NCBI GenBank assembly: GCA_040383885.1
Contig: JBEICQ010000001.1
Coordinates: 2,838 to 66,837 of the forward strand
DNA length: 64,000 nucleotides
From: Flavobacteriales bacterium
GTDB taxonomy: Bacteria; Bacteroidota; Bacteroidia; UBA4408
Reading direction: 5' to 3'
Under the pieces are notes generated by a model that was not told the origin of the DNA, did not search any database, and was given only the letters and a program-made list of their open reading frames with translations. Made by a program: the position numbers and the translations under genes. Below, piece after piece: positions 6,001 to 42,201 of this stretch (position 1 is the first letter of the stretch; the number at the start of each line of letters is the position of its first letter).

Positions 6001-6270
6001 GAGGGTGTTTGAGTTGGTCAATATCACATTGCCACCTACAGGAGCATCAAACCAGGTATAAGCATTGGCACCGGAATTTCCGCCACTTACTGTAAGCGTT
6101 ACTGTAGCAGGGCCACAACTTTGGGCATTATTTACCGAAAGTGCATTGTATTCGTAAGCACCAATATCCGGATTGTTTACGCGAGCAACACCACGCTGGT
6201 CGTTGGCTGGAGCCGATGTTGAACCTGCATCTATGGCAGGACTACAGGCGGTGAGTGCCAGTGTTTGTGT
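1..6270 (-). repeat. Tandem array of diverged Ig-like domain-coding repeats (~230-250 nt period) inside the giant surface-protein gene
   Basis: Protein-level periodicity of the Cys…C-x-G-D/G-S-V-x-L motif every ~80 aa. The DNA copies have diverged and none are identical. Confidence 0.55.
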
Positions 6271-13012: not shown

Positions 13013-14031
13013 GTAAAGATTCGCGTTCCTTCTGAGCAATTTTTACAAATATCAAGCTCTGCCCTGCTCCTGAAAATTTTTTTTCGAAACTCCATATAAG
13101 GTTCAGAGAACCATATACTCCGAAAATCTGAGCGATTGATATTGCCAAACCGGTAACTTGCATCCTTGTCAAAACAGCAGGGTACTGCAAATCCATCCCA
13201 AGTGATTACAGGAGATTGCCACATTCTCCAACAGTGGTTATATAATTTATTTTTGATACGAAACTTTCCACTCTCCGTTTGGCTGTATCGTGTAAATGCA
13301 GGGTTTTGGGGGATAAGCGCATTCCCCTCCTGGAAATCATACACCTGAGCTGTTTTAAATCTTATTTCATCCACACCAATGCTGTTTGCAAATGCTTTGG
13401 CTTGATTTACTTCATGTTCGTTATGACTGGTAAGCAAAAACTGAAAAATAAGATATGGCGTTTTGCTGCGCATCTCTTTTTTCCACTTAACCAGCAATCG
13501 GGTTCCGCGAATCACTTTATCAAGCTCTCCTCCTATTCTGTAGCTACTGTAAGATTCCTGAGTCAGTCCGTCCAGAGAGATGATTAATCTGTCGAGACCG
13601 GAGAGGATGGTTTGCCTGGCGATATTGTCATCAATAAAATGTGCGTTGGTTGAAGTAGCAGTATATAGACCTGCCTGCTTTGCCATGGCCACCATTTTTA
13701 GAAAGTCTTTATGAATATAGGGTTCACCCTGGAAGTACAAATTGGCATACAAGGCTGTTTTCCCAATATCCTTCAATGCTTTTTCAATTGTTGCAGACTT
13801 GATATTTCCGGTATCGCGGGTAAAACTTCTTAATCCACTTGGGCATTGCGGACAGCGCAAGTTGCATGCAGTGGTTGGCTCCAAAGCGATACTTATTGGC
13901 ATTCCCCACACAATTGGTTTACGCATTATTCGCGACAGGTAATAGGAAACAATCACAAAAAGTGCATTCTTAAACCGTGCAGGCGTAAACTTACTAAGTA
14001 GGTTTATTGAATCGAGGATTTTCCTCATCAT
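13009..14031 (-). CDS. Radical SAM protein with a C-terminal SPASM-like Cys-rich domain
   Basis: CxxxCxxC motif TACNLRCPQCP and a GEP motif (YFQGEPYI). The C-terminal cysteines are WDGFAVPCCFD…CKNCSEG. Its start overlaps the upstream gene by 4 nt. Confidence 0.8.
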   Translation of the reverse strand: MMRKILDSINLLSKFTPARFKNALFVIVSYYLSRIMRKPIVWGMPISIALEPTTACNLRCPQCPSGLRSFTRDTGNIKSATIEKALKDIGKTALYANLYFQGEPYIHKDFLKMVAMAKQAGLYTATSTNAHFIDDNIARQTILSGLDRLIISLDGLTQESYSSYRIGGELDKVIRGTRLLVKWKKEMRSKTPYLIFQFLLTSHNEHEVNQAKAFANSIGVDEIRFKTAQVYDFQEGNALIPQNPAFTRYSQTESGKFRIKNKLYNHCWRMWQSPVITWDGFAVPCCFDKDASYRFGNINRSDFRSIWFSEPYMEFRKKIFRSRAELDICKNCSEGTRIFT

Positions 14032-17000
14032 ACCTTAATGCCTATGACCAAAACATCATCAATCTGTTCAAGCTTGCCCTGCCATCTTTCGAGAATTTCT
14101 TCGAGCTTTTGTAATTGCCTGTTCATGGGTTCAGACTGAAGTCCAAGCAAAACATTTTTAAGCTGGTTGTATTTGAATTTTTTTCCTTCGCTACCTCCAA
14201 ACTGATCGGCATACCCATCAGAAAAAATATACAACGAATCTCCGGGAATGAGTTCAAATGTATGCAGCGTAAACGGAGGCAAATCCTTGGTAAGAAAAAC
14301 CCCAACCGGGAACTTGTTCCCTTTGATTTCATATAGCTTACATCCGTTTGCGCTAAGCACGGGCATATGGCCGGCCAGGGGCTCAGCATTGGCAGCGCGA
14401 ATGATATACAGGGGATTGTTTGCACCTGCAAAATCAAGGGTGTATGTTGAGGGATTCCAACGAAGCAAGGCAATGTCCATCCCATCTTTTGAATCGCTTC
14501 CTGCCTCGTTTTGTTTCAGGTCTCTGATGATGTTGTCTCTCAGCTGGGTGAGCACTGCATCAGGCCTCGTGATGTCTTTTTCGTTTACAATCTCGTTCAG
14601 GTTCTCATTACCAAGTAAACTCATAAATGCTCCCGGCACTCCATGACCCGTGCAGTCAACAGCTGCAATCATGCGGTAATCGTCTCTTTGGGTAGCCCAG
14701 TAAAAATCTCCGCTTACTATATCTTTTGGCTTAAAAAAGATAAAACTTTGTTGAAAGGCACGCTGAATAAATTCCCTGCTTGGCATGATGGCATCCTGTA
14801 TCCGGCGGGCATAAAAAATGCTGTCTGTAATCTCCTTGTTTTTATTTTCAATCTGGGATTTCTGTTTTCTCAACTCACTCGTTTGGTTGTGAATAATTCT
14901 ATTGAGATTTTTGGTGTACAGTATGACTATCTGAACCACTAAGAACAGACCAAAAATTGAGTAAAGTAAATAGGCCCACCAGGTTCTGTACCATGGCGGC
15001 TTAATGGAGAAACGGAAGGTTTGGTTTATACTGAAATTGTGATAAATGTTCTTGCACTGTACTTTAAAAGTATAGGTGCCTTCACTGAGATTGGTGTAAA
15101 TGGCTTCCTTTCGGTTTGAGAATTCAGTCCAGCCTTTGTCATTTCCTTCAAGGATGTAACGGTATTGATTGTAATCCTCCCTGATGAAATAATTTGAACC
15201 CAACTTGAAGATGAGGTTATTGTTTTCGTAGGGAAGTTCGGGATAAGCTGTGGAGGGCTGACTAACAACCGGCGTTCTTACAGTTTCGGTAAGGAAAGGA
15301 TGTTGCACTTCCACGAAAAAATTACCGCTGAAAATTTCTCTTCCATTACTTACTATCCGTCTGATGAGACTTGAAAAGTTTTTCCGGACCTGAACATTTC
15401 CTTGTTTGTTGTTGTACACCACCGCACCAAAATTTCCTACAATCCAAAGATCTCCTGCCTTGCTGCAATAAAACTGTTTAACCTCAAATTCTGATGGAAA
15501 GATTCGAAAAGGATAAGACCTAAAACCCGAGAGCTTACCGTTAGCATACTCAAAAAAACCATGCTCCGGATATTCCTTTAAGCGGCCATTCACTTGGGTA
15601 TGTTTGATGGCTTCTACCCAATATCTGTTGCCTATGTATTCGCAGGATATGATTTGTCTCTTGTTTGCTGTTGAAAATTCCTTGCCAAAAAAATTGCTGA
15701 TTCTTGTGTATGCCTTGCCTCGCTTATCAACACCTGCGATGAGCGTATGGTAATCAGCGAAAACAAATACCTGTCCTTTGCCTCTCGAGAGCGTGATTTC
15801 TGATTCAGTTTCAGGTACAGGAAATTTTACGGTTTGCACCCTGTACTTCACAAATCTGAAACCAAGCGTGTTTTTAAGCAAGGGAGTAATACAGTAAAGT
15901 GCATTCTTAGAACACCAGAGATTCCCGTCTACATCTTCGTTTAATTGTCTGATTTCATCTTCCAACCCATCTACATATCCTCTTTTTATCCAGCTTCCGG
16001 AAACATATTCCATCACAGCCACTCCGGAACCAAGGCCCAGATAAACGATTCCGGGATATTTTTTTGAAGGTAAAATATTATACACCGCATCGTCTTCATC
16101 AAAAATTTTCACTGCATTTTGATCATTGATGGTGTAAAGTCCTTCTTTGTTTCCAAGGAGCAGGTGATTGCTTCCATCGGAGGATTCAAATACCGCAATC
16201 TTCCAGCATTCCGGCCCAACAGATGGCAAGGAATTCAGCTGGGGCTCACCCGGATTTTTATAAAAAAGACCAAGCGTGGTGGCAAAGTATAGCTTGTTTC
16301 TAAATTCAGTAACAGATTCTACTTTCCCTTTCAGGCCGTTGGTTTCATTGAAATACCTGAAAGGACTGTTTAATTCAATGGAAGTGATTCCATTTTCCAG
16401 GGCCAACCAAAGCAGATGATCCTCGTCCTCAAAAAGAAAATGGATTTTTTCGTTCTGGATTCCGCTTTTGGTATCAATGATTTCGAAGTGAGTGATGTCC
16501 TGGTCCACTATCATCAACCCTCCCAATAGCGTTCCAACAGCAATTTTACCATTCGATAGGCGAATGGCCTTGAATACTTTGTGTCGAATAAGCAAGGTTG
16601 AAATATCATTTTTAACTTTTTCAATTTTAATTTCTCTTCCCAGGCCCTCTTTATCTATGCTTCTGCTTCCTGCCGGCAAGGTAAATTTCAATAATCCCAA
16701 ATCCTGGCTGCCACCGTAGAGCGTATTTGGTCCATCAGAAAGTAAAAAATCGAGTCTGCTATCCTGCAGCAAATCGCTCCCTTTGATGGGAATCAGAGCC
16801 TCATTGCCCACCTCAACAAGTCCGATTCCTTTTTGCCGTATGTAGATATGGTTCCCGAACTGAAAAGCTGTGTGGAATTCTCCCTCTGATTGCCAAACCC
16901 TGAACTTCCCATTGCGTAGCCTGAGCACTTTTGTTTTTGAGATGAAGTACACTGCATCGGATGTAACAAAAGTAAAATACACATAACCGAGACTACGGTC

Positions 17001-17381
17001 GTTTGGATTTAACCTGTGTTTCAGACTGTGAAATTTCTGTTTGCCTTCGGCATTGATATCAATGTAACCGATATCATCTTGTAGTCCGGCAAAAACTAAT
17101 CCGGAGGATGAATCAAGAGCAAGAGAATTAAAAACCGTATTCCCCCAGTTCTCCCAGGTAACACCATCATATTGAAAAACACCTGTGTTGTAACCAAAGT
17201 ACAAAAGCCCTTTTTTGTCCTGTGTGATGGACCAGATTTGGGTAGGCGTTTCATATTCCTTGTCGGAATAATTTCTAATATGGTAAAGACCCTCTTCTTT
17301 GCAAACCCCGGAAGCAGGAAAAACAAGGGATAGTATAAAAAGTATGCCCGCAGGAAAAGGCAACCGCAATAGTAATTGCAT
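14028..17381 (-). CDS. Sensor PP2C (SpoIIE-family) protein phosphatase. Signal peptide, periplasmic beta-propeller/Y_Y_Y-type sensor region, single TM, coiled coil, C-terminal PP2C domain
   Basis: The 1117-aa product has an N-terminal signal sequence, repetitive propeller-like segments and a TM helix WWAYLLYSIFGLFLVVQIVILY. Coiled-coil segments follow. The PP2C motifs are AVDCTGHGVPGAFMSLLG and DGYADQFGG. Confidence 0.85.
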   Translation of the reverse strand: MQLLLRLPFPAGILFILSLVFPASGVCKEEGLYHIRNYSDKEYETPTQIWSITQDKKGLLYFGYNTGVFQYDGVTWENWGNTVFNSLALDSSSGLVFAGLQDDIGYIDINAEGKQKFHSLKHRLNPNDRSLGYVYFTFVTSDAVYFISKTKVLRLRNGKFRVWQSEGEFHTAFQFGNHIYIRQKGIGLVEVGNEALIPIKGSDLLQDSRLDFLLSDGPNTLYGGSQDLGLLKFTLPAGSRSIDKEGLGREIKIEKVKNDISTLLIRHKVFKAIRLSNGKIAVGTLLGGLMIVDQDITHFEIIDTKSGIQNEKIHFLFEDEDHLLWLALENGITSIELNSPFRYFNETNGLKGKVESVTEFRNKLYFATTLGLFYKNPGEPQLNSLPSVGPECWKIAVFESSDGSNHLLLGNKEGLYTINDQNAVKIFDEDDAVYNILPSKKYPGIVYLGLGSGVAVMEYVSGSWIKRGYVDGLEDEIRQLNEDVDGNLWCSKNALYCITPLLKNTLGFRFVKYRVQTVKFPVPETESEITLSRGKGQVFVFADYHTLIAGVDKRGKAYTRISNFFGKEFSTANKRQIISCEYIGNRYWVEAIKHTQVNGRLKEYPEHGFFEYANGKLSGFRSYPFRIFPSEFEVKQFYCSKAGDLWIVGNFGAVVYNNKQGNVQVRKNFSSLIRRIVSNGREIFSGNFFVEVQHPFLTETVRTPVVSQPSTAYPELPYENNNLIFKLGSNYFIREDYNQYRYILEGNDKGWTEFSNRKEAIYTNLSEGTYTFKVQCKNIYHNFSINQTFRFSIKPPWYRTWWAYLLYSIFGLFLVVQIVILYTKNLNRIIHNQTSELRKQKSQIENKNKEITDSIFYARRIQDAIMPSREFIQRAFQQSFIFFKPKDIVSGDFYWATQRDDYRMIAAVDCTGHGVPGAFMSLLGNENLNEIVNEKDITRPDAVLTQLRDNIIRDLKQNEAGSDSKDGMDIALLRWNPSTYTLDFAGANNPLYIIRAANAEPLAGHMPVLSANGCKLYEIKGNKFPVGVFLTKDLPPFTLHTFELIPGDSLYIFSDGYADQFGGSEGKKFKYNQLKNVLLGLQSEPMNRQLQKLEEILERWQGKLEQIDDVLVIGIKV

Positions 17382-21820: not shown

Positions 21821-22879
21821 TCAGAAGCAGATTCCCGCAACACAAATATCATCTACCTGAGGCAGTTTAACCCTCCATGAAAGATGCTTTTGTAAAAGAT
21901 TTTCTTTCTGTTCTTCGGGGGAGAGATTTGCAATAGCTAAAACCAGTTTTTGCATGCTGCCTGTCATAAATTTCTTGCCTTTGTCTCCTCCAAACTGATC
22001 GGCATAGCCATCCGTATGCAAATACATCCTCAAACCATCCTTGATGGAAATAACATGCTCGGTAAAATTTTCCCTGTCTTCGAAAACCAAACCACCGATG
22101 GCGTGTTTGTTGGGTTTTATTTCTGTAAATACGGTTTCATCCACAAGCCAGCATGGCCTGTTGGCACCTGCATATCGTATTTCTTTTTGCAAAGTATCCA
22201 TGCTTACCAGGGCAATGTCCATTCCATCGCGTGAAGCATACTCACCCCGGTCCTGCTTGAGCGTAATCCTGATGTTGTGGTCGAGTTCATCCAGAATGGC
22301 TGCAGGAGAAGTTACCCCTTTTTCTTTTACAATCTGGTTGAGCAGGGTATTGCCAATCATGCTCATAAATGCACCCGGCACGCCGTGGCCCGTGCAATCT
22401 GCAATGGCAAGCAAACAGGAATGAGGACCTGTTGCATGAAACCAGTAAAAATCTCCACTCACAACATCCCTTGGCAAATACAACACAAATAATCCCGGCA
22501 GGTGCTGGCGCATTTCCTGCATTTCGGGCAAGATAGAATGCTGGATGATACGGGCATACTCGATGCTTTCGGTAACCGAGCGGTGCTCTTCCTCAACCAC
22601 CATACGCAACTGATCAATTCTTTCTTTTTCCTGATGGATGCTTAAGCTTTGCTGCCAGAGTTTTTTTATCCTTTCATCGAGCCTGGATTTTTCCTGCTCG
22701 AGTTTTTGTTTTTCGGAAGCAAGTACCGCATTGGCTTCTTCAATTTTTTTACGCTCATTGTGCACTGCCTCACTCATCTGCCAGAGCTTGCGGTTTTTTT
22801 CGGCAACGGTCTCCCTCTCTGCTTCCAGCTTTGCAATGCGCTGCAATAAATCATTTATTTCTGAAGCAGAATCGGGCAT
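21821..22879 (-). CDS. Coiled-coil PP2C (SpoIIE-family) protein phosphatase, last gene of the DUF1987-TIR-STAND operon
   Basis: The N-terminal ~130 aa have heptad repeats (LLQRIAKLEAERETVAEKNRKLWQ…). The PP2C domain carries IADCTGHGVPGAFMSMIG and DGYADQFGG. Confidence 0.85.
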   Translation of the reverse strand: MPDSASEINDLLQRIAKLEAERETVAEKNRKLWQMSEAVHNERKKIEEANAVLASEKQKLEQEKSRLDERIKKLWQQSLSIHQEKERIDQLRMVVEEEHRSVTESIEYARIIQHSILPEMQEMRQHLPGLFVLYLPRDVVSGDFYWFHATGPHSCLLAIADCTGHGVPGAFMSMIGNTLLNQIVKEKGVTSPAAILDELDHNIRITLKQDRGEYASRDGMDIALVSMDTLQKEIRYAGANRPCWLVDETVFTEIKPNKHAIGGLVFEDRENFTEHVISIKDGLRMYLHTDGYADQFGGDKGKKFMTGSMQKLVLAIANLSPEEQKENLLQKHLSWRVKLPQVDDICVAGICF

Positions 22880-22906
22880 ATTTTACTTGGCATTTCTTTT
22901 TTTTAA

Positions 22907-23866
22907 TTATTCTTTCTCAATTTCTTCAACAAAGGCATTCAGGTTTTTTTCATAGGTTTTGTGCCTTGCCTTTATCTCCAGGCCTTTTTGGGTAAAGTGA
23001 TCCTGGTCGGCCATATACTCTTCCATTTTAGGAGGAATGGTATTGCTGTATAAGCCGGGAGCCCAATGCAATTGTCTGCCCAAAAACCAAATGGCCAATA
23101 CGGAAATACATACAAATGTTTGCCTGTGCAGGGGTTGAAAAACCGGAAGATTATCAGGGGAAATTTGCTTTTTCAAATACATCAAAAACAAAGAAAGGCT
23201 GCAAACAAAAAACAATATCAATGCAAGAAAAGATATTGGATTTCCTCCGGGCCAGTGTTGTGTTTTAAACATGATTCCCATAAAACTGATTGCCATAAAC
23301 AAGTTAGCGGTAACATGAAATACACCCGGCAAAAAACCCTTCATGGATTTGTGTAACCGAAAAGAAAAGGCACGGAAGAATAAATAGAAAAAAACACAAC
23401 ACCCTAAAACAAAAACAAGGGAGGCACCCGGAACATGTTGAAACTTGGAAGCCATCCCCACCAAGAGCATGGACATAAGCAAGGGAAAGACAAATTTCTG
23501 TTGCTTTTTGGCAGCTATCATCAATGTAAGTAAGGATAATAAAGGCAGGAAAGCTGCAGCGGCAAAAACCCATTCATTTTGGATGACAAATGAAAATTGG
23601 GGAAACACGAAAAGAAAATGAAATATCCACCAGGGGAAGAGAAGCCACTTGATTTTTTTACTTCCCGGATGCAGTTCAAAAGCCTCCAGCAACAGGAGGA
23701 ATGAGAGGATTCGATAACACCAGGCCACCAATTGCAAACCCCAGGCGTTTTGAGCCATGTTGGAAAAAAAGCCCAGCAAGACCAAGAACAGAAGGGCGGT
23801 CATCTGGGTATATCTGGTTTGGGAGTTTTTCATGGTTTCTTCAATAACATCCTTACTTATTGCCAA
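22907..23866 (-). CDS. Polytopic membrane protein (~8 TM) with four internal 2-TM repeats, each ending in a (K/R)xQHWPG-like motif. No recognised family
   Basis: Repeated motifs are EAFELHPGSKK, ASKFQHVPGAS, MFKTQHWPGGNP and GRQLHWAPGLY, each following a pair of hydrophobic helices. The cytoplasmic C-tail is charged. The start overlaps the STAND gene stop by 10 nt. Alternative ATGs exist at 23833 and 23803. Confidence 0.6.
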   Translation of the reverse strand: MAISKDVIEETMKNSQTRYTQMTALLFLVLLGFFSNMAQNAWGLQLVAWCYRILSFLLLLEAFELHPGSKKIKWLLFPWWIFHFLFVFPQFSFVIQNEWVFAAAAFLPLLSLLTLMIAAKKQQKFVFPLLMSMLLVGMASKFQHVPGASLVFVLGCCVFFYLFFRAFSFRLHKSMKGFLPGVFHVTANLFMAISFMGIMFKTQHWPGGNPISFLALILFFVCSLSLFLMYLKKQISPDNLPVFQPLHRQTFVCISVLAIWFLGRQLHWAPGLYSNTIPPKMEEYMADQDHFTQKGLEIKARHKTYEKNLNAFVEEIEKE

Positions 23867-26800
23867 TTGTTTATTACGGAATTGTATCTGTCAATAGAAA
23901 AGTTCTTCAGATTGGGTGTGTACAATTGGTTTCTCTTGTTGTAATGCATGATCATCCAGGTATTCAACCAAAAACGCATGCCTGATATTTCCTTATCAGC
24001 AATTAGTTGCTCTGCATCATAGAGCACACCCCTGTCAACGAGCCCCGAAAAATAACTGTACCTGTGCCTATCGTTTCTGCCTTCGGTATTAAAGGCAATG
24101 CGCCTGGCAAAACCCTCACAATCCTCTCCTCCTATTTGTGCCAGCATCCTCATGTACTTCTGTGGCATTTTGTTGAGCCGGTGTTTTTCCTTGGCAAACA
24201 GGTGTTGCATCAGGGGCAGGGCATTTTCTTCGTATCCCTTGTCTATAAAAGTTTGGGCCAACATCAGTACATCATCCTGCCTTATCAGGTGTAAGCGGCT
24301 ACTGTCGAGGAAAGTGGCCACTTCTTTTGCGCGCCCTCTTAGAATCAATGTTCTGCAAAGCCCGGGTATGTTAAACACATCAAAATACCTGTTTTCTGCT
24401 GGTATGCTGATTTCCTTTTTTTGGGGCAAGGCTTTTTTTCCGTACAACATGGTTACCCAATCAAAATAATTGGTGCGCGCAATTTCACTTGTTGCAAATG
24501 TTTTCTTAAGCAGTTTATGATAAAAAGATGCCAACTCCGGTTTGGTTTCAAAAAAGTTTTCATCAAGCGCTTGTCCTTGTATGGCTTTAAGCACATCCCC
24601 AGTCAAATACATGGTATCAGCAAGTCCAGACATCGCATAAAACTGTTCATTGTTGTTGTACACTTCACTTTGGGGCCAAGGAATTTCATCAGGATTATTT
24701 TCGTTCCAGTAAGACACATAAAATCGTCCATCAAAAGGATTTGCAGAGGACTCATAAAACGCCAAAAAAATACCTGCAAAGGTTCCTGGTATGGAATAAA
24801 TAAAATCACCCCCTGACATATCAATGGATGTATTGGATGCTTTACCTATGGGGCTGTTTTTGTTTTCTATTAGATTAAATTGCTGCCATGAGGTAAGTAT
24901 GGCTGCTTGTTCACCTGCCGTGTCGCCTGCATGCTTCAAATAAGCAGCGTATTTTTTGTGGTACAACGCCAGCAAAAGTTTTTGCTGGTTTGTATTCAAT
25001 CCTCTTTTCGTTATTGAGGCCATCAGGTATTCATGGGCAGCGTCTACTGCTTCTTTCGGCCAAAAATACTGGCACATGGGAGGGAATCTTTTTTCAATAT
25101 CCTGTCCACTTAAAAGATCCTGTACTGAGTAATACAACATTTTTACTGAGAGTTTCCGTATCCTTTCCTCCTTTCCGCAGATGCGTTCAATGGTCTTAAA
25201 GGTTTCGGAGGCCGTGTGTTTTTTGTTGGAAAGAAGTGTCCCGAACAAGAGCAGGTCGTCAATGGTTTTTAGCTTGCCTTCCCGGTTAAAACCCTGTTCG
25301 TTTTGAAAGGTATTGACAAAATCATTCCTTGAGGCGTATTCCTGTCTGTGGAAGAACAAAATTTGTGGGACAAATAAGCCGTTGTTTACATAGCCCAGCG
25401 GAGCAGCTTCGGTTTTTTCTGCATCAAATAACTTTCTGCATTTTTCCTGCAGGGCTGACACATCTCCATGGGTATCGAAGTAAGCAGACAACAAAGGATG
25501 CTCATGCCTCAGCATACAGTTGGCAGCAAACAGGGGATTGAAAGAAATTTTTTCTAGAAATACTTTTTTTGGATTTTTTTCCTTGTATCGAATCACTGCC
25601 AGCATCAGTTGTTCGTTTATGGCATGCGTCTTTTCTTTTAGCTCTTCTATGTCCGGTACACCGGCAATGCTTAACCATAAGAGCAGTTTCGTCCATACAT
25701 GTGCCGTCAGGATATTTACCTTCCCGATTTTTTGCTTGTTCAGTTGTATTGTCTGCTCTTCTGCAATTTTTTGAAAGGAGGAAAAACCATGGCCGGCGAG
25801 CTTGCTCAGAAACTGCAAGTCCCTGCTGTAAGAGGCAGTATCGATATCCTTCCTTAAAGACCAAACAATGGCTTCCTTGATGAGCGTAAACTGCGTAGAG
25901 TCTTCCATGTTGCGGATGGCCTCCATAAACACTTCTGCATCTGCCGAGTCGCGGTTGTAGCGGCTGTATTCTATCAAAAAGGCGGCTTTCTTTTTTTCGG
26001 AGATGTAGGGGTTATTGATGTTCTCCAGGTTAAATGCCATGACCCTGTCTATGACCTGGTCATTTTGTTTGGAGTACCAGTCGAAATAAAAATACATGCA
26101 GGAACAAAGCACCAGGACGACGCCGGCATGCATAAGCAGGCGGTTGGCGCCATAGGCCAGCACAAAGCGGCTGAGCATCAGGTTGCGGGCACTGGCTTTG
26201 ATAAACACCCCGGCTTCCTGCAATTCTTTTTTAAAATGTATTTTTCTTGCTTGCTTTTCCTCTCCTGACTCATCGTACTTCAACAACCACCCTGCCGAAG
26301 GTCTTTTTTGGGCAAACCAGTGCTCAAAATAATTCAGTGAGCCAATCGGCAAGAGGTAGCCTCTTTCTTTTTTGTTGGTATACCAACGCTGCATCTGCAC
26401 CAAAAAATCGGCATACACCATGCGGTCGTCGTATTCCTGCCGGGACAATTCCTGCAAAAGTTCCCAGTTACGAATCAGGCTCTCGTGGCTGATGTCGAGC
26501 AGGCTGTCGGGAGAAAGAACCGGCTGTTCATTGTCATAGGGCTTGATGAGGGTATTTCCCTGCTTTCGGAAATGAGAAACAAACACCGCCACATGTTCAG
26601 GGGTAAAATCCTGTTCAGCGATTATTTCCGCTATCTCAGCTACTGTCATGCGGTTGCGCACATACCTTCCGGCATCTGCTTTTACCAGGCACTGCAAAAG
26701 GGTATTTAAGATATAAGCGCTTCTGGAAACCCAGGGCATCTCTGAATACTTGCTTTTTACCTCTTCCAGTGTTTTTTCATATAACTCGCCTGCATGTGCA

Positions 26801-27837
26801 TTCAGCACATTCTCCAGAGAGGGACGGTCAAAATATTTTCTTTTCTGATCGCTTTGTTGTTCCAACCATGTGTCAAATTCCTTTCGCTCGTTCTCATCTA
26901 AAAAATCCGGTGGCACTCCTGCCAGTTTCACCAGGGAAGGAATGTCCATGGGTTTTTGTGTTTCTCCCTCTCCATAGGACAAGTGCCACAATTGGTTGAG
27001 TGCATGCTGCAAAACCGGCAACTGATCAAAGCCGCTGCCAATGGCATTTACAAGGGTTTCTGTAAGCCTGGGCGTAATGGCACCCCCGGCAAGTTTTGCC
27101 GGCTCTGCAATCACTTGCTGCAACTCTTTGCGCTTGAGTCGTGGAACAAAAAACTGTGAAAAGCCAATCATCTCGGGCAGGCCGCGGAAAGCCGCACATT
27201 GTCCGATATAATCGCTGCGCATGGTGCATACCACATAGACAGGCAGCGATTGTGCATGAGCAATCTTTGCTGTTTCAATCAGCAGGTTTAATACGAGTTG
27301 TGCTTCATCGCTCGGAACTCCGTGGCTAAAGTTTTCGGGATTGGTAAAGAACTCTTCAAACTGGTCGGCAAGGATAATGAGATTGGCACCTTTTTTTTCG
27401 AGATTTTTTTTGCCTTCCTCATCCGTGTTCTGGTATGCTGAACTTTGGGGATCCACAAAAAACCCTGAGGATGCATACAATTGCAGAAGGGCCGAGAATC
27501 CATGCTGCAACTTTTCTTTTACCTGTTTCTCCTCCATCTTTAGTGCAGAAGCTACAGCCTTTGCAAGCATTTGTAGCGGAGAACGCGAAGGCGTGAAATC
27601 AGCCAGAAGCCATGAATTGAAGCGTGCTTTAAAAAATCCTGCCCTGGCCCTTGGAATCAAACCGGCATAGGTGAGTGAAGATTTTCCGTCGCCACTGGCA
27701 CCGGTGATCATCAAAAACCTGTTCTGTTCGAGCAGTGTTACAGCTTTGGCAGTATGGGCATCTCTGCCTTTAAAAAAGATGGATTCGTCCTCGGTAAACG
27801 GGCGCAATCCGGGATATGGACAAATGAGTGGTTCCAT
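23857..27837 (-). CDS. nSTAND-type (STAND-superfamily) P-loop NTPase, 1326 aa, with a mid-protein TM helix and a long alpha-helical C-terminal region
   Basis: The N-terminus MEPLICPYPGLRPFTEDESIFFKGRD matches the conserved nSTAND lead-in. Walker A is FLMITGASGDGKSSLTY and a Walker B-like motif is LIILADQFEEFF. A predicted TM segment is LLMHAGVVLVLCSCMYFYF. About 800 aa of helical repeat-like sequence follows. Confidence 0.75.
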   Translation of the reverse strand: MEPLICPYPGLRPFTEDESIFFKGRDAHTAKAVTLLEQNRFLMITGASGDGKSSLTYAGLIPRARAGFFKARFNSWLLADFTPSRSPLQMLAKAVASALKMEEKQVKEKLQHGFSALLQLYASSGFFVDPQSSAYQNTDEEGKKNLEKKGANLIILADQFEEFFTNPENFSHGVPSDEAQLVLNLLIETAKIAHAQSLPVYVVCTMRSDYIGQCAAFRGLPEMIGFSQFFVPRLKRKELQQVIAEPAKLAGGAITPRLTETLVNAIGSGFDQLPVLQHALNQLWHLSYGEGETQKPMDIPSLVKLAGVPPDFLDENERKEFDTWLEQQSDQKRKYFDRPSLENVLNAHAGELYEKTLEEVKSKYSEMPWVSRSAYILNTLLQCLVKADAGRYVRNRMTVAEIAEIIAEQDFTPEHVAVFVSHFRKQGNTLIKPYDNEQPVLSPDSLLDISHESLIRNWELLQELSRQEYDDRMVYADFLVQMQRWYTNKKERGYLLPIGSLNYFEHWFAQKRPSAGWLLKYDESGEEKQARKIHFKKELQEAGVFIKASARNLMLSRFVLAYGANRLLMHAGVVLVLCSCMYFYFDWYSKQNDQVIDRVMAFNLENINNPYISEKKKAAFLIEYSRYNRDSADAEVFMEAIRNMEDSTQFTLIKEAIVWSLRKDIDTASYSRDLQFLSKLAGHGFSSFQKIAEEQTIQLNKQKIGKVNILTAHVWTKLLLWLSIAGVPDIEELKEKTHAINEQLMLAVIRYKEKNPKKVFLEKISFNPLFAANCMLRHEHPLLSAYFDTHGDVSALQEKCRKLFDAEKTEAAPLGYVNNGLFVPQILFFHRQEYASRNDFVNTFQNEQGFNREGKLKTIDDLLLFGTLLSNKKHTASETFKTIERICGKEERIRKLSVKMLYYSVQDLLSGQDIEKRFPPMCQYFWPKEAVDAAHEYLMASITKRGLNTNQQKLLLALYHKKYAAYLKHAGDTAGEQAAILTSWQQFNLIENKNSPIGKASNTSIDMSGGDFIYSIPGTFAGIFLAFYESSANPFDGRFYVSYWNENNPDEIPWPQSEVYNNNEQFYAMSGLADTMYLTGDVLKAIQGQALDENFFETKPELASFYHKLLKKTFATSEIARTNYFDWVTMLYGKKALPQKKEISIPAENRYFDVFNIPGLCRTLILRGRAKEVATFLDSSRLHLIRQDDVLMLAQTFIDKGYEENALPLMQHLFAKEKHRLNKMPQKYMRMLAQIGGEDCEGFARRIAFNTEGRNDRHRYSYFSGLVDRGVLYDAEQLIADKEISGMRFWLNTWMIMHYNKRNQLYTPNLKNFSIDRYNSVINNWQ

Positions 27838-27838
27838 G

Positions 27839-28726
27839 CTATGCAGCGCTGCCCTCCTTTGCTTTTTCGTATTGCACTTTTATTTCAAGTGGAATTAAAA
27901 TACCATCAATAATCATACACAATACCCTGGGGGCTTTTAATTGAACATTCCGGTTGTTTTCCGGGTTGGTATCTCCAATCAAAAGGATGGGTGTTTTCAT
28001 GGAGGCTCCACCTGCGCGTTTCCATATTTCCTGGGTAAAAGGAAGGGCCCAGTCCGAGGAGGTTTTGAAGTACACGACTGCCAGGCGGCTTTTAGAAATT
28101 TGTTGTGTGCAATAGGCTGCATAATCGGTATCGCTGTTTTGCACAATACTGATATTATGTGTTTTTACCACATCTCCCAGCATGTCGAGCACATCGGCTG
28201 CATCAACTTCATCAAGGTGGTTAGATATAAAAAACACCTCCGTTTCGCTGAGGTCATAGTGGATTTGTTTTTCTTCGGAGAACTCCTGCCTCACATCATC
28301 TGCAAACTCAATAGGTGATGACACATTGCTAAAGGTCATCTGCTCGGAGAGCGCATTCCTAACCAGGCTAATGAAAGCCGATTGTTTGGGCTCGGGGATA
28401 AAGCTCCCCACATTGGGTGGATACCAGATAAAAAGTTTGAAGCCGGGTTTGTTTTGTATATAATCCAACAGGATGCGAAACTGAAACTCCGGCAGAGAAA
28501 AACTGCCTTGTAAAAAATGATGAACCGGGCCATATTCGCTGCTGAGCATGCAAACTGCTCCGCTGCATTGCTCAAGTGTTGTGAGTACCTCCTGCGGAAA
28601 TGCAGAAAGGTTGGCAGCATCAAAAACAGGACTCAGAGAGGAGATGCCTGCATTGCTAAAAACCTGGCCAAGGCTTTGTAAGTGTTGATGTCGTTGTGCG
28701 GAATCATCCGCAAAAAAGCAGAGCAT
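27839..28726 (-). CDS. Protein with two tandem TIR-like (flavodoxin-fold) modules
   Basis: Module 1 has MLCFFADDS…LGQVF…AVCMLSSEYGPVHHFLQ. Module 2 has VFFISNHLDEVDAADVLDMLGDV…AVVYFKTSSDWALPFTQEIW. Both follow the TIR strand/helix pattern (hydrophobic-FISYS-like strand, …L…L..G…F.D, …hhhS..Y..S.WC..E). There is a 1-nt gap to the STAND start and a 3-nt gap after the DUF1987 stop. Confidence 0.45.
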   Translation of the reverse strand: MLCFFADDSAQRHQHLQSLGQVFSNAGISSLSPVFDAANLSAFPQEVLTTLEQCSGAVCMLSSEYGPVHHFLQGSFSLPEFQFRILLDYIQNKPGFKLFIWYPPNVGSFIPEPKQSAFISLVRNALSEQMTFSNVSSPIEFADDVRQEFSEEKQIHYDLSETEVFFISNHLDEVDAADVLDMLGDVVKTHNISIVQNSDTDYAAYCTQQISKSRLAVVYFKTSSDWALPFTQEIWKRAGGASMKTPILLIGDTNPENNRNVQLKAPRVLCMIIDGILIPLEIKVQYEKAKEGSAA

Positions 28727-28729
28727 AGA

Positions 28730-29113
28730 TTAGTCTTCCACCGATTCCAGTGTAAAGGGATGTTTAACCAGGTTGGACATGTCCTCACCGGCTTCAAGCA
28801 TATCCGTATCGTTGGCATCATAGCGCCAGGTTACCTGTAATTTGGTTTTGCCGTCATTGTTGAGGGCCACCATTTTTTTGAGCATTTCTATGATGATTTT
28901 TGCGCTGCTTGTATTAAAGTACTCCAGGTAAATGATCAGGTGAGTGGCCGGATGGGGGGAACCTGAGTAAGTTTCAATCCAATGCTTTACGGGACCGTAA
29001 AACTTGATGGTATTTTCAGGGATTGATTTGCCTTTGAATTCAAGTGTTCCGGATGCATGATTCAGTGATACATAGGGGGTGTTCACTGTTTCAGTAATTT
29101 CGAGTGTTTCCAT
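28730..29113 (-). CDS. DUF1987 (SiaC-like) protein, probable partner-switch phospho-target
   Basis: METLEITETVNTPYVSLNHASGTLEFKGKSIPENTIKFYGPVKHWIETY has the DUF1987/SiaC signature. The internal ATG was chosen as start. The longer track ORF adds a hydrophobic leader translated from the divergent promoter region. Confidence 0.65.
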   Translation of the reverse strand: METLEITETVNTPYVSLNHASGTLEFKGKSIPENTIKFYGPVKHWIETYSGSPHPATHLIIYLEYFNTSSAKIIIEMLKKMVALNNDGKTKLQVTWRYDANDTDMLEAGEDMSNLVKHPFTLESVED

Positions 29114-29209
29114 TTTAGCCAGAAGTTTGGGTAAATATATTAAAATCTGTTTTACATTTAGGAGGAAATACACCAGGTGGAGATAAAAAAAAGAAAGCAA
29201 GGTTTTCTG

Positions 29210-35054: not shown

Positions 35055-36980
35055 ATGAACACACTGTTACACAAGGTTCCCGAGTCACAGGCTATCGAAC
35101 TTCCGGCCCTGGAAACTTCAAGGATGCTGACCGGTTTTGCATCCCTGATTTCTGCAGGAAAACTTCCTGAGAAAAAGGATGTTTTGTTCGCGTTGGCACT
35201 TAGCAGGGAATTGCGTAACCAGGCATACATCGGTCAAAGTCTATACTACTTGGCGCAGGTCTTCTTAGCCGATGAAAATCCACGCCAGTCACTTATTATT
35301 CTTGACGAAGCAAAAAAATTGCTTGCAGGTGAAGACAAGCCCCTTGTGATGCTGCAATGCCTCGAACTCACAGGCAAAGTGTATCAATCCCTGGAGGATT
35401 GTGAGATGGCGCTCGGCGAATACTTCTCAGCACTCGAAATCATCAATGAAAATCTTTCCCTTGAATACTGCAAGGGTTCCCTTCACCACAAAATTGGAAT
35501 GGCGTTTAAATCAACCCGTGATTTTGACAATGCCGTTTCACATTTCCGTAAATACCTTCATTTATCAGAAAAATACAAGCAGAGCAATGACATTGCCCAG
35601 GCCTGTTTTGAATTGGGCAACATGCTTACCCTGAGTGATGAGTATGCAGAAGCTGCTGTTTATCTGCGCAAATCACAGGAGATGGCTTTTGTCATGGGCA
35701 ATAAACATCTTGAATTGTTTGCTCTTGTTACCCGTGCCATTCTGAAAACCCGTTTGCGTCAGTTCAAAAAAGCCATGGCCTTGTTCGAAGAAGCAGAAAC
35801 TGGAATCCTGGCCAATGGTAATGAGGAAATAAAAGCCCACCTGCTGAGAAGCAAAGCCAAGTTGTTCATCGACATGGAACTCTATCCTGAAGCACTTCAA
35901 TTGCTGGATGAAGCTAGGATGTTGGCCGAAAAACTAAAATTAAACCAGGTGTTGCTGATGGTGTATAAATTTTACACCGTAGCCCATGAAGCCATGGGAA
36001 AATTTCAGTCGGCGCTGGAATTCAACAAACTTCATTTCAACCTTGAAAAGAAAATCCTTGAGGACCGTTCCAAAACCAGGGTGCATGGTCTTCAAATGAA
36101 GTTTCAGATGGAAGAAGTTCTGAAAGAAAATGAAATATTTAAATTAAAGAATGTGGTTCTGCAGCAGGCCAACGACAAGATCTTGCAACAGAAAAATAAA
36201 ATCGAGGCTTTTCATACCGAGCTTACTTCAAGTCTCACATATGCCAGCAAGATTCAGCGAGCTATTTTGCCACTGAAAGAAGAAATTTCCGAAACTTTGC
36301 CCGGACATTTTGTGTTCTGGAAGCCGCGTGATGTGGTGAGTGGCGACTTCTACTGGCATTTCAATGCAAAAACCCATACCTATATTGCTGCAGCCGATTG
36401 CACAGGTCATGGTGTACCGGGAGCCTTTATGAGCATGATCAGCAACACCATTCTCAACGAAGTGGTAGGCTCTAATCCGAATCTTTCTCCGGCTGAAATT
36501 CTCACCATGCTCAACCTGGAAATTAAAAAAGCACTGAAACAGGATTTGGGTGAAAAAGAAAGTCATGATGGTCTTGACATTGCCCTTTGTAAAATCGATA
36601 ATACCAGTGGTGTAATCACCTTTAGCGGAGCAAACAGACCTCTTTATTTGGTAAAAAAGGGAGCTGATGAAATTACAGAAATCAAATCAGACAAAGGTTC
36701 TATCGGCGGAATGCATTCTCATAATGACAGGTTTTTTGCGCAACATTCCATACAACTGGAAAAAGGAGACAGGGTGTATCTTTTTACAGATGGCATCACC
36801 GATCAGTTTGGTGAAGACACGAACAAAAAATTGCGCCCTGTTAATTTCCGAACCTGGGTGATGGAAAGTGCGGGTATCCCCTTTGATGAATTGGAACATT
36901 ACTATGCCGGAAAACTGGCTGAATGGCAAAAAGAGGAAAACCAAACAGACGACATTCTGGTGATGGGGTTTGGTTTGTGA
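35055..36980 (+). CDS. TPR-repeat PP2C (SpoIIE-family) protein phosphatase
   Basis: The N-terminal ~330 aa are TPR-like helical repeats. Coiled-coil sequence follows. The PP2C domain carries AADCTGHGVPGAFMSMIS and DGITDQFGE. Confidence 0.85.
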   Translation: MNTLLHKVPESQAIELPALETSRMLTGFASLISAGKLPEKKDVLFALALSRELRNQAYIGQSLYYLAQVFLADENPRQSLIILDEAKKLLAGEDKPLVMLQCLELTGKVYQSLEDCEMALGEYFSALEIINENLSLEYCKGSLHHKIGMAFKSTRDFDNAVSHFRKYLHLSEKYKQSNDIAQACFELGNMLTLSDEYAEAAVYLRKSQEMAFVMGNKHLELFALVTRAILKTRLRQFKKAMALFEEAETGILANGNEEIKAHLLRSKAKLFIDMELYPEALQLLDEARMLAEKLKLNQVLLMVYKFYTVAHEAMGKFQSALEFNKLHFNLEKKILEDRSKTRVHGLQMKFQMEEVLKENEIFKLKNVVLQQANDKILQQKNKIEAFHTELTSSLTYASKIQRAILPLKEEISETLPGHFVFWKPRDVVSGDFYWHFNAKTHTYIAAADCTGHGVPGAFMSMISNTILNEVVGSNPNLSPAEILTMLNLEIKKALKQDLGEKESHDGLDIALCKIDNTSGVITFSGANRPLYLVKKGADEITEIKSDKGSIGGMHSHNDRFFAQHSIQLEKGDRVYLFTDGITDQFGEDTNKKLRPVNFRTWVMESAGIPFDELEHYYAGKLAEWQKEENQTDDILVMGFGL

Positions 36981-39981: not shown

Positions 39982-42201
39982 ATGGATGCGTTGATCAAAT
40001 TTTACCCGCGAATCATCTGTTTTCTTTTTTTCATCTGCCCTACCTGTTCTGTCATACAGGGAGAAACAGCAGAAAAGTGGAAACTGCAAGATATTTTTTT
40101 AGGGCAGAAATTCAGCGTTCAGACGGGGTCTGCTTCAGTACCTTCAGTGAATCCTCAGAAATACCTTTTCCTGCAGGAGGGTGATCAATTCCGGGGAATC
40201 CTTGCTGCTTCCTATCTTTCCGGGGAAATAACCGATACTGTGATTGATGGAAACACCATCCGATGCAAGGATACCGCTGTTTCATTTTCTTCATTTATTG
40301 CTTCGCCAGATGAACGCCATTTTTTACTGCAAGGCAAGCTTTTCCCTATCTACCGCCATTCCTTCTCCGCCTTATATTACCTTGTTGAAAAAGGCAACAA
40401 ATCCGCTGTTGATTTTGCATCAGGCAAAAGTATTTCCTCTGTTTCTTTTTCACCGGACTCAAAGAGAATCGCCTATGTATTTGAAAGGAACCTATATGTG
40501 TATGACATCGCTTCTAAAAAAACACATCCCCTTACCACTGACGGAAAGGAAAATAAGATCATTAACGGAGGAAGTGATTGGGTATATGAAGAGGAGTTTG
40601 GATTAACTGAAGCGTATTGCTGGAGCGCGGATGCAGGGCATGTGGCATTTTACCGATTTGATGAGTCAGCCGTGAAAGAATTCAGCTTTACTTCCTATAA
40701 AAATCAGCTTTATCCGACAGCAGTTACCTGGAAATATCCAAAGGCGGGAGAAGATAATTCCAAAGTAGAAATATGGGTCTACGACCTCGAAAAAAAATCT
40801 TCTTCTTGCGCCTTTAAAACAGGACAGGACATGGAGTATGTTCCGCACATACAATGGGCAGGAAAAAAGAATAAACTACTGATCCATGCCATGAACAGAC
40901 TTCAGAACCGGATTGAATTTCAGTTATATGCTATATCGGACAAAAGCTGCAAGAATATATACACCGAGTCTTCTCCGGAAAATTATATTGATGCACCCGG
41001 TACATGTATTTTCGACAGCAATGGCAAGCTCTATTTTCTATCTGAACACCAAGGCTGGAAACATCTCTACAGCCTCCCTCAGGACGGCGGAAAACTACAG
41101 CAGCTTACCAAAGGCAACTGGGAAATTGATGCGATAATTGCTTATGATGCTGCTTCAGGGTACATCTATTTTAGAGCGAACAAAGACCATGTGCTTTCCC
41201 ATCAGATTTACAGAACAGATTTAAACGGAAAAAAGATCCAAAAAATATTTGATTCAGAAGGAACGCAATCTGTCGTTTTTAATGCCGACTTCACCCTGGC
41301 GATGCTTACCCATTCTTCGGCCAATAAGCCCCCGCAAAAAGTGCTGACCAATACTCAAACAGGAAAAAAAATACGGATGATCTCTTCTAACGACAGTGTT
41401 CTTGCCCGCTTAAACCGAGTGCCTTTCTCGCCTAAAAAATTTATTCGTATTCCCGCTTCGGCGGGTGATTCCATGAATGGATCGGTGATTTATCCCCAAA
41501 ACTTCAATCCTTCTTTGAAATATCCTGCCATTATTCATATCTACGGTGGGCCTGGCCGTAATATGGTGGTTGATCAATGGTCGAATAGCGAAATGCTTTG
41601 GCATCAATACATGAGCGCCAGGGGATACTTTATCTTTTCTTTCGATGGACATGGCACCCAGATGAGAGGTAAGAAATTCAGAGCATCTACTTATGGTCAA
41701 CTTGGTAATCTTGAGGCACAAGATATGCTGATGGCCTCCCGTTACCTCAAATCTCTCGGATACATCGACTCTCTGAAAATTGGTATTCAAGGATGGAGTT
41801 TTGGCGGATTTCTCAGTCTTCTGACGCTAGCCAAAGGCCCTTCTCATTTTGCTGCGGCTATTTCGGTTGCCCCTGTTACACATTGGAAGTACTATGACAA
41901 TATCTATACCGAGAGATACATGGGTTTACCGGATAAAAACCCTCTCGGGTATAACCAAAACTCTCCGCTTGAATATGCTTCTTCCATCAAAGGAAAATTA
42001 TTTCTTATTCATGGCACGGCAGACGACAATGTGCACTTTCAGAATTCGGTAGAAATGATTCGGCGATTACAGGAATCCGGAATCCCTTTTGATTTGATGA
42101 TTTACCCTGATAAAAACCATGGCATCAGTGGTGGAAAAACCAGGCTGGATGTATATTCCAGGATTTCTGAATGGTGGGATGATGTCTTTGGAATGGATTA
42201 G
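39982..42201 (+). CDS. S9-family serine peptidase, dipeptidyl-peptidase IV-like
   Basis: N-terminal DPP-IV beta-propeller region and a C-terminal alpha/beta hydrolase with the nucleophile motif GWSFGG. The signal peptide starts at the internal ATG (MDALIKFYPRIICFLFF…). The track start at 39889 would overlap the divergent gene. Confidence 0.85.
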   Translation: MDALIKFYPRIICFLFFICPTCSVIQGETAEKWKLQDIFLGQKFSVQTGSASVPSVNPQKYLFLQEGDQFRGILAASYLSGEITDTVIDGNTIRCKDTAVSFSSFIASPDERHFLLQGKLFPIYRHSFSALYYLVEKGNKSAVDFASGKSISSVSFSPDSKRIAYVFERNLYVYDIASKKTHPLTTDGKENKIINGGSDWVYEEEFGLTEAYCWSADAGHVAFYRFDESAVKEFSFTSYKNQLYPTAVTWKYPKAGEDNSKVEIWVYDLEKKSSSCAFKTGQDMEYVPHIQWAGKKNKLLIHAMNRLQNRIEFQLYAISDKSCKNIYTESSPENYIDAPGTCIFDSNGKLYFLSEHQGWKHLYSLPQDGGKLQQLTKGNWEIDAIIAYDAASGYIYFRANKDHVLSHQIYRTDLNGKKIQKIFDSEGTQSVVFNADFTLAMLTHSSANKPPQKVLTNTQTGKKIRMISSNDSVLARLNRVPFSPKKFIRIPASAGDSMNGSVIYPQNFNPSLKYPAIIHIYGGPGRNMVVDQWSNSEMLWHQYMSARGYFIFSFDGHGTQMRGKKFRASTYGQLGNLEAQDMLMASRYLKSLGYIDSLKIGIQGWSFGGFLSLLTLAKGPSHFAAAISVAPVTHWKYYDNIYTERYMGLPDKNPLGYNQNSPLEYASSIKGKLFLIHGTADDNVHFQNSVEMIRRLQESGIPFDLMIYPDKNHGISGGKTRLDVYSRISEWWDDVFGMD

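Follow-up and report, generated by a model that had tools for sequence, protein, structure and literature searches.

We examined a 64,000-nucleotide (nt) stretch of DNA, hereafter the window, from a Flavobacteriales bacterium of the GTDB lineage Bacteria; Bacteroidota; Bacteroidia; UBA4408 (GenBank assembly GCA_040383885.1, contig JBEICQ010000001.1, positions 2,838 to 66,837). Within it lies a compact minus-strand operon of five genes that includes a predicted membrane-spanning NTPase of the STAND class. All evidence on the operon is computational. An initial annotation, made from the sequence alone, had reported five genes packed with gaps of 3, 1, -10 and 27 nt from 5' to 3', and a check of the open reading frames (ORFs) at 21821-29113 confirmed both their coordinates and their tight packing (Table 1). 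In this order the genes encode a SiaC-family protein of 127 amino acids (aa), a TIR-like protein of 295 aa, a STAND protein of 1326 aa, a polytopic membrane protein of 319 aa, and a coiled-coil phosphatase of 352 aa. The -10 nt overlap holds from the TTG start of the membrane protein gene, but the ATG at 23833, which would leave a 23-nt gap, appears at least as likely a start because the orthologue in a closely related locus (L001) begins at the residue matching Met12. The mechanical ORF of the SiaC gene extends beyond its ATG to a TTG at 29200.

Table 1. Genes, domains and motifs of the operon, with positions in the window.
Feature	Position	Strand	Details
Coiled-coil PP2C (SpoIIE/SiaA-type) phosphatase	21821-22879	-	352 aa
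Coiled coil of the PP2C protein		-	residues 1-~110
PP2C domain	21833-22627	-	residues 85-349
Polytopic membrane protein	22907-23866	-	319 aa from TTG, or 308 aa from ATG at 23833
KTQHWPG	23246-23266	-	conserved motif of the multi-TM protein
KFQHVPG	23426-23446	-	conserved motif of the multi-TM protein
Single-pass membrane nSTAND1 NTPase	23857-27837	-	1326 aa
Predicted C-terminal outer domain	23860-26070	-	residues 590-1326; 737 aa, mostly helical, fast-evolving
Transmembrane (TM) helix LLMHAGVVLVLCSCMYFYF	26083-26139	-	residues 567-585
Cytoplasmic nSTAND1 NTPase module	26362-27819	-	residues 7-492; lead-in PYPGLRPF...FFKGRD
TIR-like two-domain alpha/beta protein	27839-28726	-	295 aa
C-terminal domain of the TIR-like protein	27842-28261	-	residues 156-295; very strongly conserved
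C-terminal tail APxV...GxLIPLEIKV	27842-27946	-	residues 261-295
N-terminal TIR/DUF4062-like domain	28262-28726	-	residues 1-155
Segment containing E80 and position 85	28472-28489	-	residues 80-85
SiaC-family (DUF1987) phosphoprotein	28730-29113	-	127 aa from ATG
Short divergent SiaC/AnmK intergenic region	29114-29209	-	contains TAATATATTTAC ~25 nt upstream of the ATG

The N-terminal part of the 1326-aa protein matched the Pfam family nSTAND1 (PF20703) at 3.5e-63 (215 bits against a cut-off of 27.1), and Walker A (GASGDGKSS) and Walker B (LIILADQFEE) motifs are readable in its sequence, which bears out the initial call of a STAND NTPase from its lead-in and Walker A motif. Behind the module lies a TM helix, preceded by a conserved SRxVLxYGAx[RK] motif and followed by KQNDxV. 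A hydrophobic segment occupies the same site in 58 of 60 full-length homologues (50 of the 52 with at least 1000 aa), and a basic residue (R/K566) stands at the start of the helix in 41 of 44. The initial annotation had overlooked this helix: the ~800-aa helical region that it placed after the NTPase is predicted to be mostly helical, albeit with low confidence, but it measures 737 aa and lies behind the membrane segment.

What follows the helix is far more variable than what precedes it. The NTPase module is 87% identical to its L001 counterpart and 45-54% identical to those of distant homologues, whereas the C-terminal domain is 62% identical to that of L001 and ~19-26% identical to those of other homologues of the same subtype (type A, described below), where the NTPase module reaches ~50%. 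Across 66 type-A pairs, median identity was 23% for the C-terminal domain and 52% for the module. Pfam gave no match for the window's domain nor for those of 30 of 31 type-A members; the remaining one, a putative divergent member, had weak WD40 matches. No GldM domain was detected with Pfam in the C-terminal region of the window protein or of the 31 type-A homologues. Among 1.8 billion representative proteins, a complete HMMER search returned 2 matches to the window's domain, and a word-indexed homologue search returned none, missing the query protein itself too.

Homologues differ in the kind of domain placed after the helix. Type A, represented by the window and also found in Hymenobacter, has ~730-960 aa starting with KQNDxV. 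Type B carries a WD40 propeller (L083, L084), and its operon partners include a 358-aa protein with a weak outer-membrane-protein beta-barrel match, a PKD/Kelch protein and two Por_Secre_tail proteins; this subtype occurs at one conserved site, adjoining POR and MutY genes, in several metagenome-assembled genomes (MAGs). Type C, from Aurantibacillus circumpalustris (L081), carries GldM_2nd, GldM_3rd and GldM_4th domains and TonB_C. Because the NTPase module needs nucleoside triphosphate (NTP), and the protein has one TM helix and no signal peptide, the C-terminal region is predicted to be extracytoplasmic and to lie in the periplasm, which agrees with GldM and TonB_C being periplasmic families. 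In L081 (CP121197, 10907-13981), the TM-linked nSTAND1-GldM-TonB_C arrangement is followed by a DUF4154 + SpoIIE phosphatase, with a HamA_HO-like gene nearby.

The conservation of the operon was assessed in a one-genome-per-species scan with two peptide patterns from the 295-aa family. This recovered 80 loci, nearly all from freshwater or groundwater Bacteroidia MAGs plus Hymenobacter, and the window proteins served as queries against the genes called in them. In 59 of 66 informative loci an nSTAND1 gene comes directly after the TIR-like gene on the same strand, at a median gap of 8 nt (1 nt in the window). This pair was found in 46 of 52 non-Hymenobacter loci, almost all of them uncultured Bacteroidia/Bacteroidota MAGs, and in 13 of 14 Hymenobacter loci. 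Downstream, 25/28 non-Hymenobacter loci and 0/12 Hymenobacter loci have a PP2C gene on the same strand no more than 10 kb away. Of 57 loci, 4 have SiaC directly upstream of the TIR-like gene and 5 have it within 5 kb, and it is absent from 13 Hymenobacter loci; it lies 5 nt upstream in L002 and L003, whose TIR-like proteins are 52-53% identical to that of the window, and 146 nt upstream in L037 (44% identical). The multi-TM gene is limited to one subtype of loci. The full five-gene order is kept only in close relatives (L001, 91% identity, same flanks), so the five genes proposed as one module are not co-conserved as a set. The conserved unit is the TIR-like protein plus the TM-nSTAND1 protein, with PP2C as third member in non-Hymenobacter loci. 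SiaC is a lineage-specific add-on and PP2C is integral, and the idea that the two form a pair bracketing the others had to be abandoned.

Paralogous modules occur in tandem in L084, L058 and L079. In L084 (GCA_016721765.1, 2406-17145), a first module encodes a 296-aa protein, a GIY-YIG protein (111 aa), an nSTAND1-WD40 protein (1114 aa) and proteins of 371 and 411 aa, and a second encodes TIR-like (295 aa), nSTAND1 (1355 aa), multi-TM (324 aa) and SpoIIE (399 aa) proteins. In several other loci, too, the PP2C gene is followed by a second nSTAND1 gene.

Hymenobacter loci carry different partners. In five of them a patatin gene lies downstream of the STAND gene (PADLOC phospholipase effector of the cyclic-oligonucleotide-based anti-phage signalling system, CBASS, at 8e-43), at a distance of 31-181 nt in the three loci measured. 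The patatin neighbourhoods span 15350-18132 in L063, 15285-19020 in L077 and 6854-7990 in L069; a TPR-S/MAP3K_TRAF_bd protein follows the patatin in L063 and L077, and L077 also has a SLOG-TIR protein (ThsB-like, 7e-17). No CD-NTase was seen in the patatin loci, and the Hymenobacter homologues of the core proteins had no PADLOC match. A conserved, unannotated N-terminal extension of ~270 aa is present in Hymenobacter-type and related TIR-like proteins (17 loci). At L085 (11802-13811), on the Hymenobacter tibetensis plasmid NZ_CP094670.1, one core pair, named hypothetical in RefSeq, has a 670-aa DUF4231 (SLATT-type) gene and a GH108 gene in its vicinity. We found no phage record carrying the 295-aa/STAND family.

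The 295-aa protein matched no family above cut-off in Pfam and nothing in NCBIfam or PADLOC; DUF4062 scored E 0.087 (13.5 bits against a cut-off of 24.7). All 304 homologues of ~290 aa are named hypothetical, some with weak PF13271 matches and one with PF13676, and the best relative reached 27.2 bits for TIR_2 against a cut-off of 28. An AlphaFold model built from a 36-sequence alignment contains two alpha/beta domains, with a predicted local distance difference test (pLDDT) score of 77 overall and above 90 in the N-terminal domain. Searched against the PDB, the family profile gave many matches to TIR sequences (E 0.02-0.3), which cover strands bA-bC of the N-terminal domain, and this domain is assigned a TIR-like flavodoxin fold. 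Foldseek searches of the two-domain model against the PDB returned weak matches only, divided among TIR domains, phosphoribosyltransferases and Rossmann folds. Of the tandem-TIR-like architecture first proposed, the TIR fold of the N-terminal domain stands, but the duplication is not supported, as hhalign of the two halves was not significant (E 0.05, probability 1%). Conservation within the family peaks in the C-terminal domain, where most of the 45 invariant columns fall. The tail of this domain is nearly invariant in 36 homologues but has a modelled pLDDT of less than 50, as would fit folding onto a partner, and is a candidate for docking.

DUF4062 domains are TIR-like NADases and proven effectors in Swarozyc and Evangelion, with the catalytic Glu in an 'acidic-SYT ... 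E-Y' motif (KpSwz E97, TEP1 E1008, Eva01 E87-Y88; two bioRxiv 2026 preprints). The window family has in common with them the TIR-like fold, weak sub-cut-off DUF4062 or TIR_2 matches, and a helix motif at the same place, S77-x4-[Q/A]82-[F/Y]83. It differs in pairing with a membrane STAND protein, in having a second, more conserved alpha/beta domain, and in the residue at the 'E-Y' Glu: among 78 homologues, position 82 is Gln in 60, Ala in 14, His in 2 and Glu in 1. The catalytic Glu marks the start of helix alphaC, in the 'E-Y' of DUF4062 and the SxWCxxE of TIR domains; its register here was inferred from motif spacing and published descriptions together with the AlphaFold model. At the matching site of the C-terminal domain (SxDWALPF), Phe230 is invariant. 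NADase catalysis by the 295-aa protein is unlikely from these residues. Gln at the canonical catalytic position makes an assembly adaptor or regulator the likelier role, and with Gln or Ala there in 74 of 78 homologues the original argument from TIR to NAD+ (nicotinamide adenine dinucleotide) consumption is weak. An acidic residue does lie one helical turn from position 82, at E80 in the window's clade (11/78) and at E85 in 43/78, and may represent a compensatory shift beside the Gln that replaces the catalytic Glu.

The 319-aa protein has 8-9 TM segments by hydropathy, close to the eight first proposed. It matched the Pfam family GldL_N just below cut-off (E 2e-4, 21.8 bits against 24), centred on KTQHWPG, and 5 of 14 positional homologues also matched (best 5.8e-9). 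A KxxH(W)PG turn recurs every ~60 aa, and all four sites of the repeat initially described as (K/R)xQHWPG can be read (ELHPG 63-67, KFQHVPG 141-147, KTQHWPG 201-207, RQLHWAPG 264-271), although conservation across the multi-TM family extends to just the second and third. The motif is not unique, as had been thought, but appears to be that of the GldL N-terminal hairpin. Only 2 matches to the protein were found among 5.8 billion proteins, and it evolves fast; multi-TM proteins nevertheless hold the same position in other type-A loci. In two relatives, GldL hairpins are fused to GldM_1st (1.3e-26). These chimeras (L004, 1725-2975; L010, 10879-12156) each have three GldL-type hairpins and GldM_1st, lie between the TIR-like and STAND genes, and constitute a covalent GldL-GldM protein outside the gldKLMN context.

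In the GldLM motor, the membrane-embedded Glu49 of GldL pairs with Arg9 of GldM and is important for function (10.1101/2022.01.28.478170). The GldLM/PorLM motor, the proton-driven motor of type IX secretion and gliding, and the window family appear to have hairpins of the GldL_N type in common, with their KxxH(W)PG turn. Relatives of the window proteins carry GldM_1st or GldM_2nd-4th fusions, and the single-pass STAND helix starts with a basic residue, as does GldM with Arg9. In the window, however, the hairpins are repeated in one polypeptide rather than assembled as a pentamer, a conserved acidic residue is missing at the Glu49-equivalent site, the STAND protein has no detectable GldM domain, and the cytoplasmic side carries a STAND NTPase. 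We read the multi-TM protein as a putative GldL-derived transmembrane partner of the single-pass helix. A working GldL-like proton channel was considered and set aside for lack of the Glu49 equivalent; an ion-coupled mechanism like that of GldLM is therefore not indicated.

The SiaC and PP2C domain assignments of the initial annotation held up. The 127-aa protein matched SiaC in Pfam at 1.4e-34 (118.8 bits) and in NCBIfam at 1.4e-21, where its 76.8 bits did not reach the equivalog cut-off of 150. It aligned to the Pseudomonas aeruginosa SiaC structures 6kko and 6k4f at 1e-12, YLNTSS corresponding to YFNTSS, and the window protein retains the phospho-acceptor Thr68 in its YFNTSS motif. The 352-aa protein matched SpoIIE at 5e-17, the PDB structure of the SiaA PP2C domain (6k4e) at 2.5e-36, and NCBIfam SiaA at 1e-58, this last match being confined to the PP2C part (model positions 394-653 of 658; 199 bits against an equivalog cut-off of 700). 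Its Asp-bearing motifs RDVVSGDFY, DCTGHG, TDGYADQ and DDI are all kept. The orthologues found in 25/28 loci share a coiled-coil motif, EKNKKxWxMSETVYxEKKKVDE, and usually consist of an N-terminal TM helix, basic residues, the coiled coil and the phosphatase domain. With this specific conserved coiled coil they form a dedicated subfamily of their own.

Relative to the SiaABCD system of P. aeruginosa, the window shares SiaC with Thr68 and a PP2C domain homologous to that of SiaA. It departs from SiaABCD in that the phosphatase has a coiled coil instead of the SiaA N-terminal part, SiaC is missing from most related loci, and neither SiaB nor SiaD is among the five genes or the Pfam-scanned ORFs. 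The initial annotation had noted the absence of a SiaB kinase and of a diguanylate cyclase; neither these nor any GGDEF protein turned up in the five genes or in the Pfam scan of the window (~7.5-61 kb, except for a few ORFs of at least 140 aa). Two further SpoIIE-type PP2C proteins are encoded in the window, one of 1117 aa with Reg_prop/Y_Y_Y and SpoIIE domains (14028-17381, minus strand) and one of 641 aa with TPR and SpoIIE domains (35055-36980, plus strand). The region is rich in sensor phosphatases, yet the partner kinase was not seen among the scanned ORFs.

Counter-invader systems are the setting in which the nSTAND1 family was defined (Kaur, Burroughs, Iyer & Aravind 2021, PMC8195603). 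With STAND/NLR systems (nSTAND1, Avs/bNACHT) the window locus shares this clade, a conserved switch coupled to a variable sensor, WD40 domains in paralogues, a TIR-type partner and paralogue expansion. It is set apart by the TM helix between NTPase and sensor, which would make the sensor extracytoplasmic, by a TIR-like partner that is encoded separately and has Gln or Ala at the catalytic Glu site, and by the addition of a dedicated PP2C and a GldL-type membrane partner. Judged by its parts, the locus probably works like a STAND/NLR system; it is not a SiaABCD system, and its TIR-like protein is not a canonical TIR/DUF4062 NADase. The best explanation, which we hold with moderate confidence, is a trans-membrane, NLR-like STAND sensor with a phospho-switch. 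In outline, the original proposal of a STAND module coupled to the membrane and regulated by phosphorylation has held up, while the classical cytosolic TIR-plus-STAND hallmark of abortive infection gives way to a single-pass membrane STAND protein with a variable domain that is probably extracytoplasmic.

Our analysis establishes the genes, their domains, the TM helix, the shared conservation of the core genes and the variability of the sensor; the topology, protein contacts, direction of signalling and biological role we infer as follows. The outer domain would sense a cue in the periplasm or envelope. This cue would be relayed via the STAND TM helix, which the GldL-hairpin protein may partner as GldL partners the GldM helix, a partnership suggested by domain homology and by the GldL/GldM fusions in relatives. 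The signal would then make the STAND module switch or oligomerise in an NTP-dependent manner, as is characteristic of STAND proteins. The translationally coupled TIR-like protein could serve as its obligate cytoplasmic partner, acting more as an adaptor or regulator than as an NADase. The coiled-coil PP2C, membrane-anchored in most relatives, would provide a phospho-dependent output or reset. In the window's lineage it would act on the SiaC-type substrate, with Thr68 intact, and the kinase would be encoded elsewhere. The most likely role is envelope surveillance in a conflict context, such as attack by phages or competitors. A conflict role is suggested because Hymenobacter versions replace PP2C with defence-type effectors, and we consider it somewhat more likely than ordinary envelope signalling.

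Several observations weigh against this explanation. The predicted topology rests on a hydropathy segment and the domain families of paralogues, and an AlphaFold model of the outer domain from three sequences, although helical, had a pLDDT of 47.8, which does not suffice for a fold search. In 12 type-A homologues, neither conserved motif of the multi-TM protein is followed by a conserved acidic residue at the equivalent of Glu49, in what we take to be the register of Flavobacterium johnsoniae GldL. The nearby E80 or E85 leaves catalysis by the 295-aa protein possible, and this protein is better conserved than is usual among defence components. The phosphatases of the window and L001 are without the N-terminal TM anchor of most orthologues, with the coiled coil kept. 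No SiaB-type or small HATPase kinase for SiaC occurs among the Pfam-scanned ORFs, and the absence of SiaC from most related loci makes its place in the mechanism uncertain. None of the families in PADLOC-DB v2.0.0 (2023) matched the STAND, TIR-like, membrane or SiaC proteins, and the matches to the PP2C protein were coiled-coil noise. Finally, the operon is flanked by housekeeping genes (AnmK, glutamate dehydrogenase, YchF, SucC, RNase H, MscS, MurA). Location in a defence island was accordingly rejected from the Pfam-scanned flanks.

Among the alternatives, the one that best survives is non-immune envelope signalling, in which a TM-STAND receptor, linked for example to the type IX secretion system or gliding, controls a SiaA/SiaC-type switch with the TIR-like protein as scaffold. 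This is possible, though we would not bet on it. STAND proteins need not serve immunity, as the NTPases MalT and AfsR act as ordinary regulators. The links to GldL_N, GldM and TonB_C and to Por_Secre_tail proteins speak for it, as do PP2C and SiaC, which are signalling parts with an intact phospho-site, and the high conservation of the TIR-like protein. The same holds for the housekeeping context syntenic with L001, the conserved POR/MutY site of the WD40 subtype in several MAGs, and the presence of at least two more sensor-SpoIIE phosphatases in the genome. This alternative sits poorly with the nSTAND1 clade, the hypervariable sensors, the tandem paralogues and the defence-type effectors of Hymenobacter, and the operon encodes no output domain such as a diguanylate cyclase, sigma factor or DNA-binding domain.

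Classical abortive infection would have a cytosolic STAND protein sense phage proteins and a TIR NADase deplete NAD+, with SiaC and PP2C as a safety switch. We regard this as unlikely. A variable domain behind a conserved TM helix, with periplasmic families in the same place in paralogues, does not fit cytosolic sensing, and the Gln or Ala at the catalytic site and the invariant Phe in the C-terminal domain do not fit an NADase. There were also no PADLOC matches or phage-borne copies, and the flanks are housekeeping. What recommends it is the definition of nSTAND1 within systems directed against invaders (PMC8195603), the NADase effectors proven in Swarozyc and Evangelion, the predicted TIR fold of the 295-aa protein, the CBASS-type patatin and ThsB-like TIR protein near Hymenobacter copies, and the plasmid copy of H. 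tibetensis near a DUF4231 gene. A chance juxtaposition of an orphan SiaC/PP2C pair with a TIR-like/STAND/membrane trio is very improbable: SiaC is adjacent in 4/57 loci only and absent in Hymenobacter, and self-sufficient SiaA/SiaC pairs reportedly function alone in Pseudomonas, but PP2C lies downstream in 25/28 loci and, marked by a conserved coiled coil, belongs to a subfamily of its own, there is no space for separate regulation in gaps of 1-27 nt, and SiaC also stands upstream of diverged TIR-like proteins in L002/L003 (5 nt) and L037 (146 nt).

To our knowledge, known bacterial STAND/NLR-like systems detect ligands in the cytoplasm. The trans-membrane STAND sensor, if real, would extend the NLR principle to extracytoplasmic surveillance, with a logic nearer to that of animal Toll-like receptors. 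Such a sensor would link STAND switches, TIR-like domains with Gln or Ala at the Glu position and SiaA/SiaC-type phospho-switches, and would be the first non-motor context for GldL- and GldM-derived modules. More speculatively, and with considerable reserve, the loci could represent a Bacteroidota family of NLR-like STAND proteins that cross the inner membrane and survey the periplasm or envelope instead of the cytoplasm, with swappable outer domains (a helical domain of no known family, a WD40 propeller or GldM-TonB_C), a partner derived from the GldL stator of the type IX secretion motor, and a TIR-like adaptor combined with PP2C/SiaC or, in Hymenobacter, with a patatin lipase. This would amount to outside-in sensing of the innate-immune type in bacteria. 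Both the 295-aa family and the 737-aa outer domain are without Pfam or NCBIfam annotation. In line with the initial annotation, which was aware of no system with this gene set, the combination had no match in the 2023 PADLOC release and was undescribed in the literature searched (open-access papers only). Cultivable Hymenobacter carry the core pair, which makes the idea testable.

Downstream of the operon, a convergent RNase H gene ends 7 nt from the PP2C stop, and upstream a divergent AnmK gene lies ~60-100 nt from the SiaC gene. The short intergenic region between SiaC and AnmK is the sole plausible promoter region. By our own reading, the element it contains upstream of the SiaC ATG resembles the Bacteroidota -7 element TAnnTTTG and is a candidate. 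A scan for sigma-70 promoters and terminators gave counts equal to those in shuffled sequence, the sigma-70 model being unsuited to Bacteroidota.

Elsewhere in the window, no ORFs were listed in the first 7.5 kb because a single giant ORF (1-7263, minus strand, at least 2421 aa), with a signal-peptide-like start (MSERMIKSIKPVLFLILALLLQ...), runs off the window start. An rRNA operon had been suspected there from the missing ORFs and GC skew, but Rfam gave one tRNA only, the sole match in the window (58712-58783, plus strand); the strong positive GC skew in 1-7.5 kb is a strand effect. A 635-aa ORF at 42198-44105 (minus strand) combines CNNM, CBS and CorC_HlyC transporter domains with a C-terminal GldD gliding-motility lipoprotein domain (4.5e-61). 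Either the two parts are fused or mechanical ORF calling has joined two genes.

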